Origin: Candidatus Latescibacterota bacterium | GTDB lineage: Bacteria; Latescibacterota; UBA2968 | Length of the DNA stretch: 64,000 nt | Direction: 5' to 3' | Assembly (NCBI GenBank): GCA_965204745.1 | Contig: OZ242010.1 | Span: 4,544,001-4,608,000 of the forward strand | In this document: one piece after another, positions 13,955 through 60,479 of the stretch | How positions within the stretch are numbered: the stretch's first letter is position 1 | Layout: each line of letters begins with the position of its first letter | Notes under the pieces: generated by a model | What the model saw: only the letters and a program-made list of their open reading frames with translations | Database searches by the model: none | What the model was told of the DNA's origin: nothing | Made by a program: the position numbers and the translations under genes

Positions 13955-14182
13955 GTACAACTGCGATAGCAGTTCATCGTCGGGCTTGCCTCTCACCTCT
14001 TGCCTCTCCCGTCTTGCCTTGTACAACTGCGATAGCGGTTCATCGTCGGGCTTGCCTCTCACCTCTTGCCTCTCCCGTCTTGCCTCGTACAACTGCGATA
14101 GCGGTTCATCGTCGGGCTTGCCTCTCACCTCTTGCCTCTCCCGTCTTGCCTCGTACAACTGCGATAGCGGTTCATCGTCGGG
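13955..14182. repeat. 66-bp tandem repeat, about 3.5 copies
   Basis: Units start at 13955, 14021, 14087, 14153: GTACAACTGCGATAGCRGTTCATCGTCGGG + CTTGCCTCTCACCTCTTGCCTCTCCCGTCTTGCCTY. Confidence 0.95.
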
Positions 14183-18486: not shown

Positions 18487-21400
18487 ATGCGTAACCGGAT
18501 TTTATCAACGGGCTTGTTGATGACCGCTCTGATCGTGCTGATCTTTCTGAGCTATCGGGCCGTTGCTGAACCCGATGCCCAAGGTGGCGCGACCACAGGG
18601 GAAATTTCCCCGATTGCTGAACCGCACGCGAAAATGCCCGATGTACGCAAAGCACGGCGGTTGCTCGAACGCATCGCCGAAGCCACGCACAGATCGGATG
18701 ACATTACACAGCGCACGAAAGTTGCCGCTGGCGCCAATGCCAATACGCGGCTGTCGCTCGACCTGATCGCCAATGGCGGATCGGGCAATCGGCGAAATGA
18801 TGGCGTCACATCGGGCACCGTGTCTGGGCGAGGCACCAAAATTGCCATTGAGATTTTCGCAACCGGCGTCACCACCCCTTTGATCGGCATGCAACTTCGG
18901 TTTGACTTTGATTCGTCCCTCGTCACCTTTGTCAAAGCCGAGAACAGCGCGTTTGCCTTGAACCTGCCATCACCACCGACGGGCACAGACTTCGCGGCGA
19001 CGTCACCGGTCACATTGCCATCGTCTAATTTTCTGGCACGGGCAGAGTTCACCACAGCGTCCGATGTCACGGATAGGGAATTTTCCATTGGCATTGCGTC
19101 GGTGGTGCTTTCTGAAAGCCAGTCCTCGAGCGACAGGCTCATCACGAGAAACCGGATCTCGTTTAACGTTCCCACTACTCTCACGCCCGATTTTGATGGC
19201 GATGGGATGGTAGGCTTTTCCGACTTCTTGGCGTTTGCAGGGCGATATGGCACGCGGCGCGGGGATGGCAGATACCAAGCCAAGTACGATTTGAACCGCG
19301 ATGGCGCAATAGACTTTTCTGATTTTCTGAGTTTTGCCGGCAGTTATGGCAAGCCGCCCCCTAACAGTGGCGGTAGCAGTCCCGACGGTGAGCAACGGGG
19401 CGGTACGCCCAAGATGTACTGGGTGGACACGGGGAAGATTCAGCGTGCCAACCTCGATGGCTCGAATGTCGAAGACCTCATCACCACAGGATTGAGTGCG
19501 CCAGATGGCATCGCGCTGGATGTGGAACGCGGAAAGATGTACTGGACGGACTGGATCGCGGATAAGATTCAGCGTGCCAACCTCGATGGCTCAAATGTTG
19601 AAGACCTCATCACCACAGGATCGTATGGGCTAAGGGGCATCGCGCTGGATGTGGAGCGCGGAAAGATGTACTGGACGGACTGGTACACGGCTAAGATTCA
19701 GCGTGCCAACCTCAATGGCTCGAATGTCGAAGACCTCATCACCACAGGATTGAAGTCGCTAGATGGCATCGCGCTGGATGTGGAACGCGGAAAGATGTAC
19801 TGGACGGACTATGGCACGAATAAGATTCAGCGTGCCAACCTCGATGGCTCGAATGTCGAAGACCTCATCACCACAGGATTGAGGCTGCCACGGGGCATCG
19901 CGCTGGATGTGGAACGCGGAAAGATGTACTGGACGGACTATAGCACGAATAAGATTCAGCGTGTGCCAACCTCAATGGCTCAAATGTTGAAGACCTCATC
20001 ACCACAGGATTGAGGTATCCAGGTGGCATCGCGCTGGATGTGGAGCGCGGAAAGATGTATTGGACGGACTGGGGGGCACGGCTTAAGATTCAGCGTGCCA
20101 ACCTCGATGGCTCGAATGTCGAAGACCTCATCACCACAGGATTGAGGCTGCCACGGGGCATCGCACTGGATACCTCGGGGGCCGGTAGCAACGGCGGCGG
20201 TGGCAGTAGTCCCGATCTGATCGTTGAATCGCCTTCGGTCAGCGATAGCACCTTGACGCCTGGGCAATCCTTCACCTTGCAAGCCACAGTTCGCAATCGC
20301 GGCACGGGACAATCAGCCTCGACGACCTTGCGCTATTATCAATCGTCCAACGCGACGATCGCCACGAGCGATACAGAAGTGGGCACGGATTCGGTCAGCG
20401 GTCTTTCGGCTTCGGGCACGGGTTCGGGATTGATCCGTCTAACTGCTCCGTCGAGTGCTGGCACGTATTACTACGGCGCGTGCGTGGCAAGCGTCAGCGG
20501 CGAGAGCAACACCGACAACAACTGCTCGGATGGCGTGCGCGTCACGGTGAGTAGCGGCGGTGGCGGTGGCGGTACGCCCAAGATGTACTGGGTGGACCAG
20601 GAGGCGGCTAAGATTCAGCGTGCCAACTTGGATGGCTCCCAGGTTGAAGACCTCATCACCACAGGATTGGGTACGCCATCTGGCATCGCGCTGGATGTGG
20701 GACGCGGAAAGATGTACTGGACAGACTGGGACACGGATAAGATTCAGCGTGCTAGCTTGGATGGCTCCAATGTCGAAGACCTCATCACCACGGGATTGTG
20801 GCAGCCACTTGGCATCGCGCTGGATGTGGGACGCGGAAAGATGTACTGGACAGACCAGGGCACGGCTAAGATTCAGCGTGCCAACTTGGATGGCTCCAAT
20901 GTCGAAGACCTCATCACCACAGGATTGAGGCGACCAGTTGGCATCACGCTGGATGTGAGACGCGGAAAGATGTACTGGACGGACTGGGACACGGAGAAAA
21001 TTCAGCGTGCCAACTTGGATGGCTCCCAGGTTGAAGACCTCATCACCACAGGATTGAGTTACCCACGGGGCATCGTGCTGGATGTGGGACGCGGAAAGAT
21101 GTACTGGACGGACTATGGCACGGAGAAGATTCAGCGTGCCAACTTGGATGGCTCCAATGTCGAAGACCTCATCACCACAGGATTGAGTTATCCACTTGGC
21201 ATCGCGTTGGATGTGGGACGCGAAAAGATGTACTGGACGGACTGGGACACGGAGAAGATTCAGCGTGCCAACTTGGATGGTTCCAATGCCGAAGACCTCA
21301 TCACCACAGGATTGAGGGAGCCAAATGGCATCGCGCTGGATACCTTGGGGGCCGGTAGTATCAGTCGTCCCGATCTGATCGTTGAATCGCCTTCTGTCAG

Positions 21401-24137
21401 CGACAGCACGCTGACGCCTGGGCAATCCTTTACCTTGCGCGCCACGGTTCGCAATCGCGGCACGGGGCAATCAGCCTCGACGATCTTGCGCTATTATCAA
21501 TCGTCCAAATCGACGATCGCCACGAGCGATACAGAAGTGGGCACGGATTCGGTCAGCGGTCTTTCGGCTTCGGGCACGGGTTCGGAATCGGTCAGTCTAA
21601 CTGCGCCGTCGAGTGCCGGCACGTATTACTACGGCGCGTGCGTGGCAAGCGTCAGCGGCGAGAGCAACACCGATAACAACTGCTCGGATGGCGTGCGCGT
21701 TACGGTGAGTAGCGGCGGTGGCGATGGTGGCGATGGCGATGGCGGTGGCGGTGGCGGTGGCGGCGAGGTTGGTACGCCGAAGATGTACTGGAGAGACACT
21801 GGCACGGCCAAGATTCAGCGTGCCAACTTGGATGGCTCTCAGGTCAAAGACCTCATCACCACAGGATTGAGGGAGCCACTTGGCATCGCGCTGGATGTGG
21901 GACGCGGAAAGATGTACTGGACGGACTATGGCACGGATAAGATTCAGTGTGCCAACCTCGATGGCTCCCAGGTTGAAGACCTCATCACCACAGGATTGAC
22001 TACGCCAGTTGGCATCGTGCTGGATGTGGAACGCGGAAAGATGTACTGGACGGACACTGGCACGGATAAGATTCAGCGTGCCAACTTGGATGGCTCCAAT
22101 GTCGAAGACCTCGTCACCACAGGATTGACTACGCCAGAAGGCATCGCGCTGGATGTGGAACGCGGAAAGATGTACTGGACGGACTGGGGCACGACTAAGA
22201 TTCAGCGCGCCAACTTGGATGGCTCTCAGGTCGAAGACCTCATCACCACAGGATTGACTACGCCAGTTGGCATCGCGCTGGATGTGGAACGCGGAAAGAT
22301 GTACTGGACGGACACTGGCACGGCCAAGATTCAGCGTGCCAACTTGGATGGCTCCAATGTCGAAGACCTCATCACCACAGGATTGAGTAGGCCAAATGGC
22401 ATCGCGCTGGATGTGGGCCGCGGAAAGGTGTACTGGACGGACATTGGCACGGCTAAGATTCAGCGTGCCAACTTGGATGGCTCTCAGGTCGAAGACCTCA
22501 TCACCACAGGATTGAGGACGCCAGGTGGCATCGCGCTGGATACCTCGGGGGCCGGTAGTATCAGTCGTCCCGATCTGATCGTTGAATCGCCTTCGGTCAG
22601 CGACAACACGCTAACGCCTGGGCAATCCTTTACCCTGAAAGCCACAGTTCGCAACCGGGGCACGGGGCAATCAGCCTTGACGACCTTGCGCTATTATCAA
22701 TCGTCCGACGCGACGATCTCCACGAGCGATACAGAAGTGGGCACAGCTTCGGTCAGCGGTCTTTCGGCTTCGGGCATGGGTTCGGAATCGATCAGTCTGA
22801 CTGCGCCGTCGAGTGCTGGCACGTATTACTACGGCGCGTGCGTGGCAAGCGTCAGCGGCGAGAGCAACACCGACAACAACTGCTCGGATGGCGTGCGCGT
22901 CACGGTCGAGGTCAAGGATGACCACAGCAATACCCGATCTGACGCGACCAGCCTGTCTTTGGGTAGCTCACGCTCTGGGCAGATAGACACCGGCGGCGAT
23001 GTCGATTACTTCAGAGTGCAAGTCAGCCGTTCTGGCACCTTGACGGTTTATACGACAGGATACACCGATACTTATGGTACGTTGCAAAACCGTTTCGGCT
23101 CCTCTTTGGAAACCGATGACGATGGAGGAAGTGGTAATAATTTCAGTATCGAACGTTCCGTGAGTGCGGGGACCTACTACATCGCAGTACGAGGATATGA
23201 CTCGTCAGCGACTGGAAGTTATGCCGTTCACGCAAATCACGAAGAGGCAGAGGTCTCCGGCACCGCAGGGACCTTCCACATTGATCTCGTCTTCCCCAAC
23301 GACAGCGACTTCACGGCCTCACAGAAAGCATTGTTCCAGCAGGCCGCCACGCACTGGATGTCGATCATCACAGAAGACCTTCCGGATATCGACTTTTCGA
23401 CCAATCCGGTCTACTACTATGACGTGTTGTTGGGCCTGATTCACGTCGACGACGCTGTAGATGATTTGCGGATATACGTGCGTAGCGTCTATATTGACGG
23501 GTTGAGTAATACGCTGGGGCAAGCGGGGCCATTACATATACGGCACAGTTCTAACCTGCCGAGCCTCGGCATCCTACTCCTCGATGCGGCTGACCTAAAG
23601 CGCATGGAAGAGGACGGATTCTTGTACTCGGTGATTCTTCACGAGATGGGGCATGTGCTGGGAATCGGTACCCTCTGGAGCGAACACGGCTGGCTTCAGA
23701 ATCCATCTTCCAACAACCCGGGGGCAGACACGCACTTTACCGGGCCGCGGACGATTCAGGCGTTCGACAATGCGGAAGGTTGGGACTACACAGGGGCTAA
23801 GGTACCGGTAGAGAATGAGCGCGATAAAGGCCAAGACGGGCATTGGCGGGAGCGCGTGTTGGACCATGAACTCATGACGGGATGGACAGAGAGGGGCATG
23901 CCCGAAGCCCTGAGCGCGATCACGATCCAATCTTTAGCCGACCTCGGCTATCGAGTTGACATCAGTCGGGCCGACGCATACAGCTTGCCCGACCCAACCC
24001 AGGTGAGTGCGAAAACCGCCGAGGGACATGGCCTCAGTTTCGAGAACTGCATCCGAAGCGGGCCGATCTACGTCGTAGATGAGCAGGGGCGCGTCCTCCG
24101 CATTATCGAAAATGAGGCGCACCCCGCCAAAGAATAA
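18487..24137 (+). CDS. Giant secreted protein: cohesin-like, EF-hand/dockerin-like, 3x[6 YWTD (LDLR class B) repeats + CARDB], PPC, leishmanolysin-like M8 metallopeptidase; frameshifted at about 19962
   Basis: DFDGDGMVGFSDFL, 18x KMYWTD-type repeats, PDLIVESPSVS, HEMGHVLGIG...GHWRE...ELMT. An extra GT (CAGCGTGTGCC vs CAGCGTGCC) splits ORFs 18487-20013 and 20010-24137. Confidence 0.85.
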
Positions 24138-24183: not shown

Positions 24184-24246
24184 ACTGACCACTAACCACT
24201 AACCACTGACCACTGACAACTGACAACTGACAACTGACAACTGACC
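24184..24246. repeat. Heptamer tandem repeat (CTRACMA)x~9
   Basis: Direct reading, immediately before the thiG ATG. Confidence 0.9.
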
Positions 24247-25023
24247 ATGACAAACGACTTCACAATCGCAGGCGTGACCTACCGATCTCGACTGTTGATC
24301 GGCAGCGCGCGCTATCCCAACATGCAAGTGATGCTGAAGGCCATCGAGGCCAGCGGGGCAGAGATCGTCACCGTGGGGATACGGCGGATCGACATGCATG
24401 ACGCATCCGGCGAGGGCGTGCTCAATTTGCTCGACAGATCGCGCTACGCCATTTTGCCCAATACAGCCGGGTGTTTCACGGCGCGAGACGCGGTGTTGAC
24501 CGCAAAATTGGCACGCGAAGCACTCGAAACCGATTGGGTCAAATTGGAGGTGATCGGGGATGAGCGCACCTTGTTTCCGGACGTGACCGGGTTGCTCCAC
24601 GCTGCCGAAACACTGGTGAACGACGGGTTCACCGTGTTGCCCTATTGCAATGACGATCCCATTACCTGCAAGAAATTGGAGGACTTGGGATGCGCTGCGG
24701 TGATGCCCCTCGGCGCGCCCATTGGTTCGGGCATGGGGATTCGCAATCCCTACAACATTCAAATCATTTTGGATTCGGTGCGCGTGCCGGTGATCGTGGA
24801 TGCGGGCGTGGGCACGGCGTCCGACGCTGCGTTGGCAATGGAATTGGGATGCGATGGCGTGTTGCTGAATACCGCAGTCGCGGGGGCGCGGCATCCGGTA
24901 AAGATGGCCCGAGCGATGAAAAACGGGGTTCAGGCCGGGCGATGGGCGTTTGAGGCCGGGCGGATTCCCCGCAAGTTGTACGCCACGGCTTCCACGACAA
25001 TGGAAGGACGGGTGGTCTTGTGA
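24247..25023 (+). CDS. thiG: Thiazole synthase
   Basis: [38 protein letters not shown]. Confidence 0.97.
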
Positions 25024-31000: not shown

Positions 31001-31425
31001 GCCACAAAAGGCACAAAAGGCACAAAAGGGGTACAATTGGCGATAGCCCGTTCAAAGGCACGAGCGGGGTACAACTGGCGACAGCCAGTTCAAAGGCGTA
31101 GGGGCGATGCCCGTGCTCGCCCGAAGATACAAGATGGGAGTTTAGCCACAAAAGGCACGAGCGGGGTACAACTGGCGACAGCCAGTTCAAAGGCGAGCAG
31201 TGAGTGTAGGTCTTCTCCCGTCTTGTATCTTATACCAATTTGATTTTATATTAGCCGCCTCCTGCCTCACATCAGAAATAAATAAGCGTTCCGTAGGGAT
31301 CATTGCTGGTCTAAAACGTTTGGCCTTACAGCCTTGGGGTGGAAGGGTGGGGACTGACTACTGACTACTGACCACTGACCACTGCCTCTTGCCTCTCCCG
31401 TCTTGCCTCTCACCTCTCACCTTTT
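31001..31425. repeat. Cluster of GGGGTACAACTGGCGAYAGCCAGTTCAAAG palindromic repeats, a GTAG-REP and heptamer repeats
   Basis: Same units at about 1750-1840 (reverse) and 63440-63540; GTAGGGGCGATGCCCGTGCTCGCCC near 31098. Confidence 0.85.
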
Positions 31426-42432: not shown

Positions 42433-43452
42433 TCATCCCCATGGTTTCAAAACGACCTTTGCACACGCGCCTGTGGTTTGCAATTCCCAGGCTTTTTGAA
42501 CGTCGTCCAGTGAAAACATGTGTGAAATCAGCCGGTCCAATTTGTCTGCATTTGCGCGGACGACCTGCATCAACTTGGGCATGTCTTGCAAATTGTAATG
42601 CCATGATCCGACGAGCGTAATCCCTTTGCGGATCATATCTCGGCTGATACGCAGGGGCGTGTCTTCCCCGCATTCGCCCACAAATGCCACTTGCCCGCGC
42701 CGTCTCACCGCGTCGATGCACAGCCGATGCGCGGGCACTGCGCCCGAGCAATCCACAGCCGCATCCACGCCGACCCCGTCCGTCAAGTCCATAACTCGTT
42801 GCAACGCCTGATCATCTGCGGGATCGATCACCTCGTCCGCGCCCAATGCAAGGGCTTTCTCGCGCCGCCACGGATTGATATCCACGGCGATCACGCGCGC
42901 GCCTCGGTGCTTGCCATTGATCACGCCCCCAAGGCCCACAGGCCCTAAGCCCGTCACCATCAACGTATCAAACGCCCCTATCCCCATGCGCTGTGCCGCG
43001 CCAAAGGTGGGGCCTAAACCGCAACAGGCCATCCCCCCGTGTGCGTAGGAAACATCATCCGGCAGTTTGGGCAACAACCAGTCCGGCTTTAACAGATATT
43101 GCGCCATCGTGGCTCGGCCCTCGGCACTACCCGTAAATTGGTCAAACGCGACATTGTGCTGGCAATGGATGTAATCGCCACGGATGCACAGGGCACAGAC
43201 CCCGCACGGATATTGCGGCATCACCGCCACGCGGTCGCCCACCGCCACGCGCACGGGTTGGGCAGTTTCGACCACTTCCCCTGCGGCTTCGTGCCCCAAC
43301 GAGGTCGTCGCCCTGCCATTCGCAAAGCCCTTGTACTCGGTACACATCGGCGCGGCGTGAACTTTGACCAACACCCAATTCTCTTTTGGCTTCGGCTCTG
43401 GGACGTCGATCACACCGCCCTCGCGCTCCCCAAAAATTGCAGCGACTCTCAT
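42433..43452 (-). CDS. Zinc-binding alcohol dehydrogenase family
   Basis: MCTE, LGHEAAGEV, CGVCALC...C, GLGPVGL; GGAGGT SD. Confidence 0.9.
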   Translation of the reverse strand: MRVAAIFGEREGGVIDVPEPKPKENWVLVKVHAAPMCTEYKGFANGRATTSLGHEAAGEVVETAQPVRVAVGDRVAVMPQYPCGVCALCIRGDYIHCQHNVAFDQFTGSAEGRATMAQYLLKPDWLLPKLPDDVSYAHGGMACCGLGPTFGAAQRMGIGAFDTLMVTGLGPVGLGGVINGKHRGARVIAVDINPWRREKALALGADEVIDPADDQALQRVMDLTDGVGVDAAVDCSGAVPAHRLCIDAVRRRGQVAFVGECGEDTPLRISRDMIRKGITLVGSWHYNLQDMPKLMQVVRANADKLDRLISHMFSLDDVQKAWELQTTGACAKVVLKPWG

Positions 43453-43589
43453 TTGCCACCTCCCAAATAAAGTTGACAGGGTTCGGACATCGGTATTCAT
43501 TCAGACGAATCAGGCGTAATGGGCGGGGACTGATAACTGACAACTGCCTCTCCCCTCTTGCCTCTCCCCTCTTGTATCTTGGAAGTAAG

Positions 43590-43790
43590 GGTTAATTAGG
43601 AGTTGCGCCCTCGTATCGAGATAAGCCATCTTGATGCCCGGCTCGGGGAAGGCCGGCCCCTCTTGAAGGCGATGACCTTGTAGGTAAGATAGGCCCCCCG
43701 ACCGCCGGGTCTATGCCGAAGAGTATCTAAGCCCCTTGAGGCTGCATATACAAGACCGGTAGACTTGGCGTCAATGGTCGGGACGCGACC
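43590..43790 (+). ncRNA. IS110 bridge RNA (target- and donor-binding loops)
   Basis: Guides CCCCTCTT 43657-64, AGGTAAGA 43682-89, AGAGTATCT 43720-28, ATACAAGA 43748-55 within GGCC/GGCC and GTCTA/TAGAC closing stems. 5'/3' limits are approximate. Confidence 0.8.
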
Positions 43791-43839
43791 CCGAGCGCGC
43801 ACCAGATCCCTTACAACCCCCTCATCACAGGAGGCCCCC

Positions 43840-44847
43840 ATGTCGAAATCTCACCCCGCTTTTGCCGGCATTGATGTCAGTGCCCGCACGTTGTCCGTTG
43901 CCCTGTCCAGACCCGGACAAGCTGTCATGCAAGCGACCTTTGCCAATGATCCCCAAGCGCATAAGCGGTTGCTGAAGTGGCTCACGAAGGGCGGGCACAT
44001 GGTCTCTGTGTGCCTCGAAGCGACCGGGCTTTACAGTTTGGGGGTGGCCTTGGCCTTGCATCGGCATCGCCACACAAAGGTCATGGTCGTCAATCCCAAA
44101 GCGATGAGCAAGTACGCCCAAGCCTGCATGCAACGGGCGAAGACGGATGCGAAGGATGCGTTGTTGATCCTCGACTATGCCGAGCGCATGCCTTTTGTGC
44201 CTTGGCAAGCGCCGAGCGAGCAACGGCTTCAACTGCAAGCCCTCACCAGACGCATTGACCAACTCAAGCAGGAGATCATCCGCGAACAGAGCCGCAACCA
44301 CGCGCAGAGCTACCACATCCGCAGCACACGTCTCATCGCACGCGATATTCAGGTGAATATTCGACACTTCAAACGCCGGATTGCATACTTGGAAAGCCAA
44401 GCCCTCGATCTCGTTTTGCACGATGAGCCCCTCAAGCGTGCCTACCAACGCCTCTGCTCGACGCCTGGCATCGCGCAAACGAGTGCCTTGCGGCTCTTGG
44501 CCGAGTTGACCCTTTTGCCAGAGGAGATGCAACCGCCCCAGTGGGTCGCACATGCAGGCCTGGATCCCAAACCCAAACAATCCGGAACCGCCAATCCACA
44601 AAGACGCATCTCGAAAACCGGGAATAAGTACCTCCGCCATGCCCTCTATATGCCTGCCTGGGTGGCCATCAGACACGAAGGCCATGTCAAAGCCTTCTAT
44701 GACCAACTCATCGCCCGCGGCAAGAAACCTTTGCAGGCTATCGTTGCGGTGATGCGAAAGTTGCTCCATTCGATCTGGGGCATGTTGCGCCATGACCAAG
44801 ATTTTGAGGGCGAAAAATTCTATCGAATCACCCCGAAAACCCCTTGA
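43840..44847 (+). CDS. IS110 family DEDD recombinase/transposase
   Basis: GIDVSA, CLEATG, KTDAKDA, PGIAQ, AGLDPKPKQSG, SKTGNKYLRHALY, AVMRKL; AGGAGG SD. Confidence 0.97.
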   Translation: MSKSHPAFAGIDVSARTLSVALSRPGQAVMQATFANDPQAHKRLLKWLTKGGHMVSVCLEATGLYSLGVALALHRHRHTKVMVVNPKAMSKYAQACMQRAKTDAKDALLILDYAERMPFVPWQAPSEQRLQLQALTRRIDQLKQEIIREQSRNHAQSYHIRSTRLIARDIQVNIRHFKRRIAYLESQALDLVLHDEPLKRAYQRLCSTPGIAQTSALRLLAELTLLPEEMQPPQWVAHAGLDPKPKQSGTANPQRRISKTGNKYLRHALYMPAWVAIRHEGHVKAFYDQLIARGKKPLQAIVAVMRKLLHSIWGMLRHDQDFEGEKFYRITPKTP

Positions 44848-44910
44848 CCTTTTAAGAGAGTATCTTACCTTTTTGCCTTTCACTTCTCGAAAAAACAAGG
44901 GAAGCCCAAC

Positions 44911-45993
44911 ATGAAAAAACCCATCCGCATGGCGATAGTTGGCGTGGGGCGCATTGGCGTGTTTCACGCTCGGCACGTTCAAGAACTCGCCCGCGAGACC
45001 GGGCAGTGCGAACTCGTGGCCGTGGCGGACACTTATGCTGACACGGCTGTGCGCGTCGTTGCCGAACTTCAGGCCGATCAGGAAGTCGAAATTCGCGCTT
45101 TCAAGAACGTGTTTGACCTCGCGGCGGCGAACCTCATTGACGCGGCGTTTATCGCGTCTCGCACCGAAGACCATGAACGCGATGCGCGAACCCTCATCGA
45201 CGCGGGTTGCCGCGTGCTCTTGGAAAAACCATTGACCGATTCGCTCGCATCTGCCCGAGCATTTATCGCGGACCTCAACCGCGATGCCACGCGCAAGAAC
45301 GCGCTGATGCTGGCTTTTATGCGCCGCTATGACCCCCCGTTGCTCAAAGTCAAAGCGCTGATCGACCAAAACGCCATTGGCAAAATTTTCAAAATCGTCT
45401 CGGTTCTCGAAGACCCGATTCCACCGCCCGAGGGTTACAACAGCGCGGGCTTGCTCAGCGACATGGCGGTTCACAACTGCGACGAAATCCTCTGGCTACT
45501 CGGTTGCCCCATGCCCGAATACGTGGCCGCGTTTGGGTCCAATCTTTACAACAGCACCATCAGCACGGTTCCAGAAGATTACGACGACGCGTTTTTGCAG
45601 ATGTGGTTCCCCGGGCACTTGATCGGTCAAGTCTCGGTCAGCCGCAATCACGTCGCGGGATATCGCAACGCCACTTGGGTCTATGGCGATCAAGGGGTGA
45701 TTCACGTCGGCCACTTTCGGGAAAACCCGCTCGCGGTCACAGTCGAAGCCTACGGTCGCAATGGCATCATCCACGAGGAAACCATCGCCCTGCGCGACTA
45801 CGGCTCGGATGTGCCCGTGTTCATCACCCGATTCGGCGAATCCTACAAAAACGAACTCGCGGATTTCATCACCCACTGCATCGCCGACACCCCATTCAGC
45901 GTCACGCACGAAGACGGGTACAAAGCCATGAAAATCGCCATGATCGGCGGCGAATCAATACGTCCGAAAGAGGCCGCGCAAAAGATAGCGTAA
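44911..45993 (+). CDS. Gfo/Idh/MocA oxidoreductase (inositol 2-dehydrogenase-like)
   Basis: GVGRIG, LLEKPL, AFMRRYDP, DMAVHNCD. Confidence 0.88.
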   Translation: MKKPIRMAIVGVGRIGVFHARHVQELARETGQCELVAVADTYADTAVRVVAELQADQEVEIRAFKNVFDLAAANLIDAAFIASRTEDHERDARTLIDAGCRVLLEKPLTDSLASARAFIADLNRDATRKNALMLAFMRRYDPPLLKVKALIDQNAIGKIFKIVSVLEDPIPPPEGYNSAGLLSDMAVHNCDEILWLLGCPMPEYVAAFGSNLYNSTISTVPEDYDDAFLQMWFPGHLIGQVSVSRNHVAGYRNATWVYGDQGVIHVGHFRENPLAVTVEAYGRNGIIHEETIALRDYGSDVPVFITRFGESYKNELADFITHCIADTPFSVTHEDGYKAMKIAMIGGESIRPKEAAQKIA

Positions 45994-59630: not shown

Positions 59631-59830
59631 TTTGTCGCTCCTCCCGAGGGGGGGGGGGGGGGGGGGGGGTACACTGTACTGATCAGCCTAACAGATTGTT
59701 TTGCAATGAAATAGAACCACACGCCAAGACGAGAATCGGCGACATGAACGCCCGTTTTCGCGGTGGGACAAGCGGTAAAAACATAGGGCCAAATGATGTT
59801 CAAACAGCGGCTGAAAATGGTGGGAATCAT
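59627..59830 (-). CDS. Leader ORF homologous to the extended signal region of the 36245 gene, containing a C22 tract
   Basis: GVHVADSRLGVWFYFIAKQSV vs GVHVAHPRLGVPFYFIANQSV; AAAGGAGG SD; G22 at 59648-59669. Confidence 0.75.
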   Translation of the reverse strand: MIPTIFSRCLNIIWPYVFTACPTAKTGVHVADSRLGVWFYFIAKQSVRLISTVYPPPPPPPSGGATK

Positions 59831-59996: not shown

Positions 59997-60479
59997 GGGG
60001 ACCTACCCCCTGGCCCCCTTCCTAAGAGGAAGGGGGAACTGTGAGCGGTTTTGCGAGGGATTGTGTGTAAGGGTTTTTAGATTTTCATGGCGTGATCCAT
60101 TCGCGCAAAGCCATCAAAACAGCCAGGGATACAAACCTTCAAGAAAGCCATGCGCTCCCCCTTTCCGCGTAGGCACAGGCGTAGCCTACAATGAGCGAAG
60201 CGAATAACGGGGGCCGGGGGGATAGGGCTATGGCGGCGGGGCGTGCGAAGAACACAGCGGATGTGAAGGACGAAGCGGCGGTAGGGTGGTGGGTGGATCT
60301 TGCCTCTTACTTCTTGCCTCTTACTTGGGGAAAGGGCTTGCGGTTGGGCGGATGGGCACGCACAGGTGGCATCGAAGGTAGCAAACGAGGGGGCAGGACC
60401 AAACGCCTTAAATGAGCAAGCAACACATTTGCTACTCTGTGCGTAACGTTAAATAAAAAAATAAAATGTCAACAGAACC
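59997..60479. repeat. REPIN-like element, heptamer repeats and MITE right-end fragment
   Basis: Shared cores; ...AAATGTCAACAGAACC|TA at 60464-60481. Confidence 0.8.

Follow-up and report, generated by a model that had tools for sequence, protein, structure and literature searches.

An IS110-group insertion sequence in a Latescibacterota bacterium whose left-end guide words match heptamer repeats of its host

IS110-group insertion sequences (IS) with bridge RNAs are a kind of element known since 2024, and the targeting of host repeats by IS110 bridge RNAs is established. The results presented here concern one member of this kind, located at 43573–44865 of a stretch of 64,000 nucleotides (nt) from Candidatus Latescibacterota bacterium (assembly GCA_965204745.1, contig OZ242010.1, positions 4,544,001 to 4,608,000 of the forward strand), which is referred to as the window and supplies the coordinates used below. 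With a probability of about 0.88, the locus is an active or recently active IS110-group IS that consists of a DEDD/Ser recombinase gene and an upstream left-end bridge RNA of ~150–200 nt. The evidence comprises the anatomy of the element, protein homology, a conserved two-loop fold, covariation between guides and targets, and an occupancy of sites that follows guide complementarity.

IS621 of E. coli (Durrant et al. 2024; Hiraizumi et al. 2024) provides the main comparison. Durrant et al. 2024 describe four guides for IS621, each of which includes a CT core. The left target guide (LTG) has the top-strand sequence of left target and core, and the right target guide (RTG) has the reverse complement of core and right target. 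The same rule applies to the donor in the left and right donor guides (LDG and RDG), so that LTG and LDG pair with the bottom strand and RTG and RDG with the top strand. The bridge RNA is described there as driven from the circular form. Hiraizumi et al. give D11, E60, D102, D105 and S241 as the catalytic residues and place a handshake guide directly after the RTG core complement. The element in the window shares with IS621 the two Pfam domains and the catalytic residues, a left-end bridge RNA in which the target loop precedes the donor loop, the guide strands and CT core, nucleotides 3' of the RTG core that are complementary to the donor beside the core in a handshake-like manner, and a repeated host sequence as target. 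It differs in its only moderate protein similarity (E 5.8e-36), in an LTG of 5 nt plus core compared with 7 plus core in the IS621 text, with an RTG of 5 nt beyond the core and a target of 12 bp, in a target that is a tandem heptamer simple repeat, whereas that described for IS621 is a REP palindrome, and in the coexistence of several guide lineages in one genome.

Three other systems bear on the comparison. The ISCro4 transposase (PDB 9t56) is similar in its protein alignment. ISPpu10 of Pseudomonas putida is described (bioRxiv 10.64898/2026.03.19.712850) as a trans-acting IS110 element with all insertions in one conserved intergenic repeat, where a target stem-loop is a second specificity determinant; the heptamer arrays targeted here are pyrimidine-rich on one strand. 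For CazIS110-1 and seekRNA-type IS1111/IS110 elements, a preprint (bioRxiv 10.1101/2025.10.25.684509) describes RNA-guided transposition that preserves the old copy and in which TBL-only RNAs take part, the latter bearing on the orphan left ends discussed below. Preservation of the old copy would be consistent with the 52 copies found here. In the IS1111 group the RNA is located in the right end, whereas the element in the window has it in the left end.

The known mechanism is unchanged by this element. Its novelty lies in the member as such, in a target made of simple-sequence repeats, in a 5+2+5 guide code that is short, and in several guide lineages that coexist. Among the papers searched, none connected IS110 elements or bridge RNAs to Latescibacteria, or to targets made of heptamers or other simple-sequence repeats; the supplements of Durrant et al. 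2024 may already list the element.

The recombinase, the guide words and the predicted fold

The features of the element and its junctions are as follows.

43573–44865, plus strand: IS110-family element, with 52 full-length copies that have common ends
43840–44847, plus strand: transposase, 335 aa, PF01548 (DEDD) and PF02371, the only open reading frame (ORF) of the insert
43637–43782, plus strand: predicted core fold of the bridge RNA, from single-sequence and alignment folds
43657–43664, plus strand: LTG, CCCCT with core CT and T, a copy of the target top strand
43682–43691, plus strand: RTG, AGGTA with AG, the core complement
43720–43728, plus strand: LDG, AGAGTAT with CT, the same as the right end of the element
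43748–43755, plus strand: RDG, ATACA with AG and A, reverse complement of TCTTGTAT at the left junction
43545–43572, plus strand: heptamer array left of the element, ending in left target CCCCT (43566–43570) and core CT (43571–43572)
44857–44865, plus strand: right end of the element, left donor AGAGTAT and core CT
44866–44870, plus strand: right target TACCT in the right flank

The insert is 1293 bp long when one copy of the CT core is counted at the right end, and its boundary is ambiguous inside a TCTT that is common to both junctions. Judged by eye from the ends, TGTATCTT... and ...AGAGTATCT, there are no terminal inverted repeats; GTATCT is present at both ends as a direct repeat. No target duplication extends beyond the shared core dinucleotide, and CT is found at both junctions in all 52 copies. 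The array to the left, traced over 43545–43574, has a period of 7/14.

By sequence, the transposase is of the DEDD/Ser type and clearly homologous to the bridge recombinases of IS621 and ISCro4. Its ORF is preceded by AGGAGG at 43829–43834 and matches PF01548 (DEDD_Tnp_IS110; E 1.2e-24, 87.3 bits) and PF02371 (E 4.8e-20, 72.2 bits), each over the cut-off. Among solved structures, the best match is the ISCro4 transposase (E 7.6e-40, residues 7–326), and the alignment to the IS621 transposase spans nearly the whole ORF. Counted by hand on that alignment, where the numbering of the IS621 PDB chain is offset by 2 from the residue numbers of the paper, D12, E60, D103, D106 and S248 share columns with the IS621 catalytic residues. 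At E <= 1e-40 the protein is present in 4 of 31 genomes (the source genome and 30 relatives). When species-representative genomes were scanned, the only matches were in two Latescibacteria metagenome-assembled genomes (MAGs) and, at 48%, in one Gemmatimonadota MAG.

An earlier sequence-only reading of the window had proposed an IS110 bridge RNA with four readable guides, and all four words are present. CCCCTCTT at 43657–43664 is identical to the left flank at 43566–43573, and AGGTAAGA at 43682–43689 is the reverse complement of TCTTACCT at 44863–44870. AGAGTATCT at 43720–43728 is identical to the right end at 44857–44865, and ATACAAGA at 43748–43755 is the reverse complement of TCTTGTAT at 43570–43577. 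The guide and left-junction positions of that reading were right; its two right-end positions were one base low, placing TCTTACCT at 44862–44869 and AGAGTATCT at 44856–44864. When extended, the same-strand matches are 9 nt long at both the left junction (CCCCTCTTG) and the right junction (AGAGTATCT), and the reverse-complement matches are 8 nt (ATACAAGA) and 10 nt (AGGTAAGATA) long, respectively. The interior of the left end was shuffled 1000 times with dinucleotides preserved, and four matches of at least 8 nt never arose together: 797 shuffles had no such match, 180 had one, 22 had two and 1 had three.

The orientation of the guides agrees with the rule of Durrant et al. 2024, which bears out the proposed IS621-type layout of target loop and donor loop with a CT core. 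The target loop has a short 5+2+5 guide code for the 12-bp target CCCCT-CT-TACCT. An AUA lies 3' of the RTG core complement and is complementary to the donor TAT adjoining the core, making it a candidate handshake guide; one of its positions would pair with the target's own T too.

The two internal loops that had been proposed for the left end appear both in a single-sequence fold and in an RNAalifold fold of 19 aligned left ends. The alignment covers four genomes: the source genome (G000, 7 variants) and the relatives G016 (6), G018 (5) and G030 (1). The fold consists of a closing stem (43637–43643 with 43776–43782) and two units of stem, internal loop and stem-loop. The predicted target-loop stems are 43644–43654 with 43692–43700 and 43666–43669 with 43676–43679; the predicted donor-loop stems are 43704–43718 with 43757–43769 and 43730–43733 with 43740–43743. 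Across 36 scaffold pairs, 98.2% of 677 cells are paired, compared with 30–56% when partners are slid by 1–3 columns. Double-sided changes occur in 4 scaffold pairs (8 cells); the covariation score was matched by 0 of 500 shuffles and the number of double-change pairs by 3 of 500. The fold is therefore supported, but it is not proven by covariation alone because most pairs never vary. The most telling feature is that the guide segments are variable columns amid invariant scaffold words. The LDG is kept in 18 of the 19 left ends, with 2–3 substitutions in the G030 row.

Guides, targets and the occupancy of sites

A BLAST search of the element against the source genome gave 66 segments, of which 52 are full length. 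These include 31 copies at 100% identity, 6 at 99.0–99.9%, 8 at 96.1%, one at 95.7%, one at 94.8% and 5 at 88.5–89.1%; the other 14 segments are fragments at ~12 places. The boundaries proposed from the window are common to the other copies, with the same ends in 52 of 52, and every full-length copy is inserted next to a CT in a CNTCTYN heptamer array. In one copy, the left end has an additional C behind its second base. At G000:C1:1121591–1124179 (L052), copies of 100% and 96.1% identity stand in tandem, with the single heptamer unit TACCTCT between them.

Lineages with altered guides occupy correspondingly altered sites. Five lineages from three genomes were compared, with LTG/RTG reads of CCCCT/TACCT, TCCCT/CACCT, YGCCT/TACTT, TCCYC/TTTCT and CGCCT/CCC; the 94.8% copy (own_v6), which is a mosaic, and three G030 copies were omitted from the permutation test. 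Mean matches of flanks to their own guides were 7.1–10 of 10, compared with off-diagonal means of 2.0–8.0, and for each lineage the diagonal value was the maximum of both its row and its column. Only the identity among the 120 lineage permutations equalled the observed sum of matches.

The individual lineages illustrate this correspondence. The main guide pair (LTG CCCCT, RTG for TACCT) is carried by 45 copies, 20 of which are at CCCCT-CT-TACCT, 17 at CCCCT-CT-TGCCT, where a guide U is opposite G, and 4 at TACCT-CT-TACCT. The remainder comprise 2 at CCCCT-CT-CCCGT and one each at sites ending in TACTT and TGCCC. The claim that the target is a unit pair of the host heptamer repeats holds, as the copies occupy either the site that was predicted or a close variant. 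In the single 95.7% copy, LTG positions 1 and 8 and RTG position 4 are changed and the site is changed exactly there: the LTG is TCCCTCTC, the RTG reads CACCT, and the site TCCCT-CT-CACCT matches at 10 of 10 positions. The five 89% copies have LTG CGCCT or TGCCT and an RTG for TACTT, and at their sites C(G/A)CCT or TACCT precedes the CT and TACTT (four) or TACCT (one) follows it, with G-to-A differences where a guide G could wobble.

The correspondence extends to relatives. The G018 elements (76–78% protein identity) have guides that read CTCGCCT-CT-CCC and are located in heptamer arrays at (C/T)T(C/T)(G/A)CCT-CT-CCCGT, with CCCGT as the right flank in 14 of 18. The G016 elements (81–84%) have guides that read TCC(T/C)C-CT-TTTCT or TTCCT and occupy ...CCCC-CT-TTTCT in a different repeat, which is REP-like and not a heptamer array. 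The repeat at the G016 copies (L087–L092, L111) is roughly GAGATGTTCTNCCCC-CT-TTTCTCGNAGGGAGG. In the G030 copies (L034, L038 and L042; 54%), the RTG fits the right flank AACGT, and the LTG ends in CAT.

Old fragments of ~89–91% identity are present in the source genome at G000:C1:921773–922155, 1263488–1264353, 1433019–1433889 and 2089406–2089465. Their LTGs are of the CCCCC-CT type, like those of G016, and three of them share the flank CGCCATTCCCC-CT, suggesting that a further target was used in the past.

The occupancy of sites in the source genome follows complementarity to the main guides. The perfect site, CCCCTCTTACCT, is occupied 20 times and empty 5 times (80% occupied); CCCCTCTTGCCT, at which RNA U would be opposite G at one position, is occupied 17 times and empty 65 times (21%; Fisher p = 1.2e-7). 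TACCT-CT-TACCT, with two distal LTG mismatches, is occupied 4 times and empty 83 times (~5%). CCCCT-CT-TACGT (18 empty) and CCCCT-CT-TGCGT (38 empty) have no occupied sites. CCCCT-CT-CCCGT, with 2 occupied and 8 empty, is an outlier for the main guide.

In an older view of IS110/IS1111 ends, the four words would be protein-binding subterminal repeats, and the transposase rather than an RNA would pick the target. The words do exist as DNA too. However, they are located in the loops of a conserved fold with the strand orientation that RNA-DNA pairing requires. Moreover, G-T and U-G wobbles are tolerated as for RNA, since the occupied sites include some with A or G across from a guide U and some with A across from a guide G, and two homologues of the transposase are recombinases whose structures were solved with bridge RNA. 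A purely protein-based choice of target is thus extremely unlikely.

The same donor ends are combined with differing target reads, four heptamer-array codes and TCCYC/TTTCT for the REP-like repeat, making this a clean natural example of bridge-RNA reprogramming within one genome and one genus. The occupancy of sites also provides a free specificity profile. As a candidate tool the recombinase is compact at 335 aa, but with so short a guide code its specificity is probably limited.

Copies off their own guides, mobility and the joined ends

Some copies do not match their own guides, and these raise the question of whether guides are shared. Co-resident lineages have identical donor ends and differing target loops, so bridge RNAs, among them those from orphan left ends that are truncated, might act in trans across lineages as a shared pool and direct copies of any lineage to other repeat variants. 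The source genome contains 58 target loops with 9 guide pairs, some in truncated left ends. One of these (G000:C1:2972662–2972850) carries LTG CCCCT and RTG CCCGT. The two copies at CCCCT-CT-CCCGT (1927368 and 5150716), although of the main type throughout, match these orphan guides at 10 of 10 positions and their own at 7 of 10, and they have inserted there even though the closer TACGT and TGCGT sites are all empty. Experiments reported for ISPpu10 and for TBL-only RNAs describe bridge RNA and recombinase acting in trans. Conversely, the orphan left end is without the 3' stems of the donor loop, only two copies are involved, slippage loss of one 7-bp unit beside the IS would yield the same CCCGT junction, and half-match off-target insertion is documented for IS621. 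Trans guidance, half-match off-target insertion and 7-bp slippage thus remain as readings of the CCCGT copies, and a shared guide pool is a tentative and somewhat doubtful proposal. In the orphan, left-end positions 1–182 run straight into the final 6 nt of the right end.

The mosaic copy (L063:100–1392; G000:C1:602783–604074) bears on the same question. The 125 nt at its start, which contain the target loop, are closest to the 89% lineage (118/125), and its remainder is closest to the 96% lineage (143/144 in the segment compared next). Its site agrees with its own guides at just 7 of 10 positions and with the guides of the 95.7% copy at 10 of 10. Homologous recombination between lineages explains this copy equally well as guidance in trans.

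The mismatch of the mosaic copy is one of several points that weigh against a mobile element guided by its own bridge RNA. Eight of the 45 main-pair copies are at sites with no more than 8 of 10 Watson-Crick matches, and 2 of the 3 G030 copies have a left junction without the CT core. In the fold, 22 of 36 pairs never vary or depart only via unpaired cells, and, as close relatives were compared, the stems covary modestly. The single-sequence fold of 43636–43790 is not unusually stable (z = -1.09), and the stability of the whole left end (z = -2.74) was deemed unremarkable. No Rfam match at E <= 1 was found in 43300–45100, although it is uncertain whether Rfam 15 includes a bridge RNA model. 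Six runs are listed for the organism, none of them RNA, and the public contigs of four DNA sets contain no circle junction or precise empty site. None of these contigs joins across the element; one set covers both flanks and stops at the ends of the IS. A single internal skip of 315 nt was found on a low-depth contig of another organism.

The missing circle junctions and empty sites would also be expected of a fossil, in which the guides record past targeting and the copies are no longer mobile. Some copies are indeed broken, with a frameshift at 3890249 and fragments at the ~12 places noted above. However, 31 copies are 100% identical over 1292 bp, the transposase frame is open in almost all copies, and in one public run set the depth is about 2600–2700 over the IS contigs compared with 74 in the flanks, a ratio of ~35-fold that is near the copy number. 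Given these observations, the fossil reading is quite unlikely.

For an active or recently active bridge-RNA element, RNA production, the circle with its promoter and the chemistry are inferred by homology with IS621. The element would leave its site as a circle, and the joining of its right end to its left end would assemble a promoter that transcribes the bridge RNA. The donor loop of this RNA would pair with the circle junction AGAGTAT-CT-TGTAT, and the target loop with CCCCT-CT-TACCT, a particular unit pair of the host CNTCTYN arrays. The recombinase would then exchange strands at the CT core, and insertion would therefore proceed without duplication.

The two halves of the candidate promoter are as follows.

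43575–43580, plus strand: candidate -10 hexamer TATCTT, part of a promoter only at the circle junction
44844–44849, plus strand: candidate -35 hexamer TTGACC in the right end, overlapping the stop codon

The joined ends read TTGACC, 18 nt, TATCTT. The same hexamers are found at 17 nt in G016 and G030, and G018 has TTGAAC with an unchanged -10, so that the split promoter is found in 4 of 4 lineages, including one at 54% protein identity. As a consensus match only, this candidate agrees with a circular form that drives the RNA. In the integrated copy, the promoter and terminator scan found no sigma-70-like site before the left end and no terminator; it found one internal promoter-like site, no more than in shuffles.

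The heptamer target field and neighboring sequence

The element separates two divergent genes.

42433–43500, minus strand: zinc alcohol dehydrogenase
44911–45993, plus strand: GFO/IDH/MocA oxidoreductase

The orthologous intergenic region of G018, the closest relative, is without the IS and shares the sequence of both sides; its array is shorter. Because the length of the heptamer array differs, this region is not a base-exact empty site.

Heptamer arrays are abundant in the source genome, which contains 690 arrays of at least three CNTYTYN units, 28,084 bp in total; a shuffled genome contains none. In the window there are 17 matches to the target 12-mer within two mismatches, compared with 2.18 expected. 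Among the near-matches that had been proposed, those at 1323 (1 mismatch) and 1381 (2 mismatches) were recovered; that at about 60301 was not, as the heptamer array at 60298–60326 has no target match within two mismatches. The longest stop-to-stop frame spanning an array has a median of 532 nt, compared with 1431 nt for 690 random places, which by this crude open-frame proxy is consistent with an intergenic position. The proposal that the simple-sequence repeats serve as a "safe harbour" goes beyond this, as the arrays are shown only to avoid long open frames. Biologically, the element shows how mobile DNA exploits simple-sequence repeats in a lineage that is uncultured.

Matches to a four-unit pattern across 21 genus genomes number 1718 in G000 and 1564 in G018, and 1–90 in the other 19 (15 in G016). 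CNTCTYN arrays are thus ~100-fold more abundant in exactly the two genomes whose IS110 lineage targets heptamers. The three IS-bearing genomes are mutual nearest kin by the neighboring oxidoreductase (90–91% vs 81% or less); array expansion and the targeting IS may therefore represent one or two evolutionary events and not a statistical association.

The donor junction is itself a tandem GTATCTT heptamer pair in the same xxxTCTT register as the target units. On this ground the recombinase could be imagined to generate or amplify its own heptamer arrays, with the element and its landing pads expanding together. If true, the IS would build its own target field via target-like half-sites offset by 7 bp; we regard this as very unlikely. 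A cyanobacterial origin of the heptamers (the STRR idea) was ruled out, as phycobilisome families were not found in the genome.

Other repeats are present in the window. A second heptamer family, ACTGACC/ACTGACA, occurs at 1260–1283, 1410–1431, 24184–24251, 31353–31384 and 43527–43545 and often adjoins CNTCTYN arrays, including the array just left of the element. At 13955–14182, a 66-bp unit is repeated 3.5 times at 98% identity, with a heptamer array inside each unit. A long array of 129-nt units, which can also be read as units of 258 or 387 nt, extends over 19424–22541 and is probably a repeat-domain coding region. Finally, a run of 22 G is located at 59648–59669.

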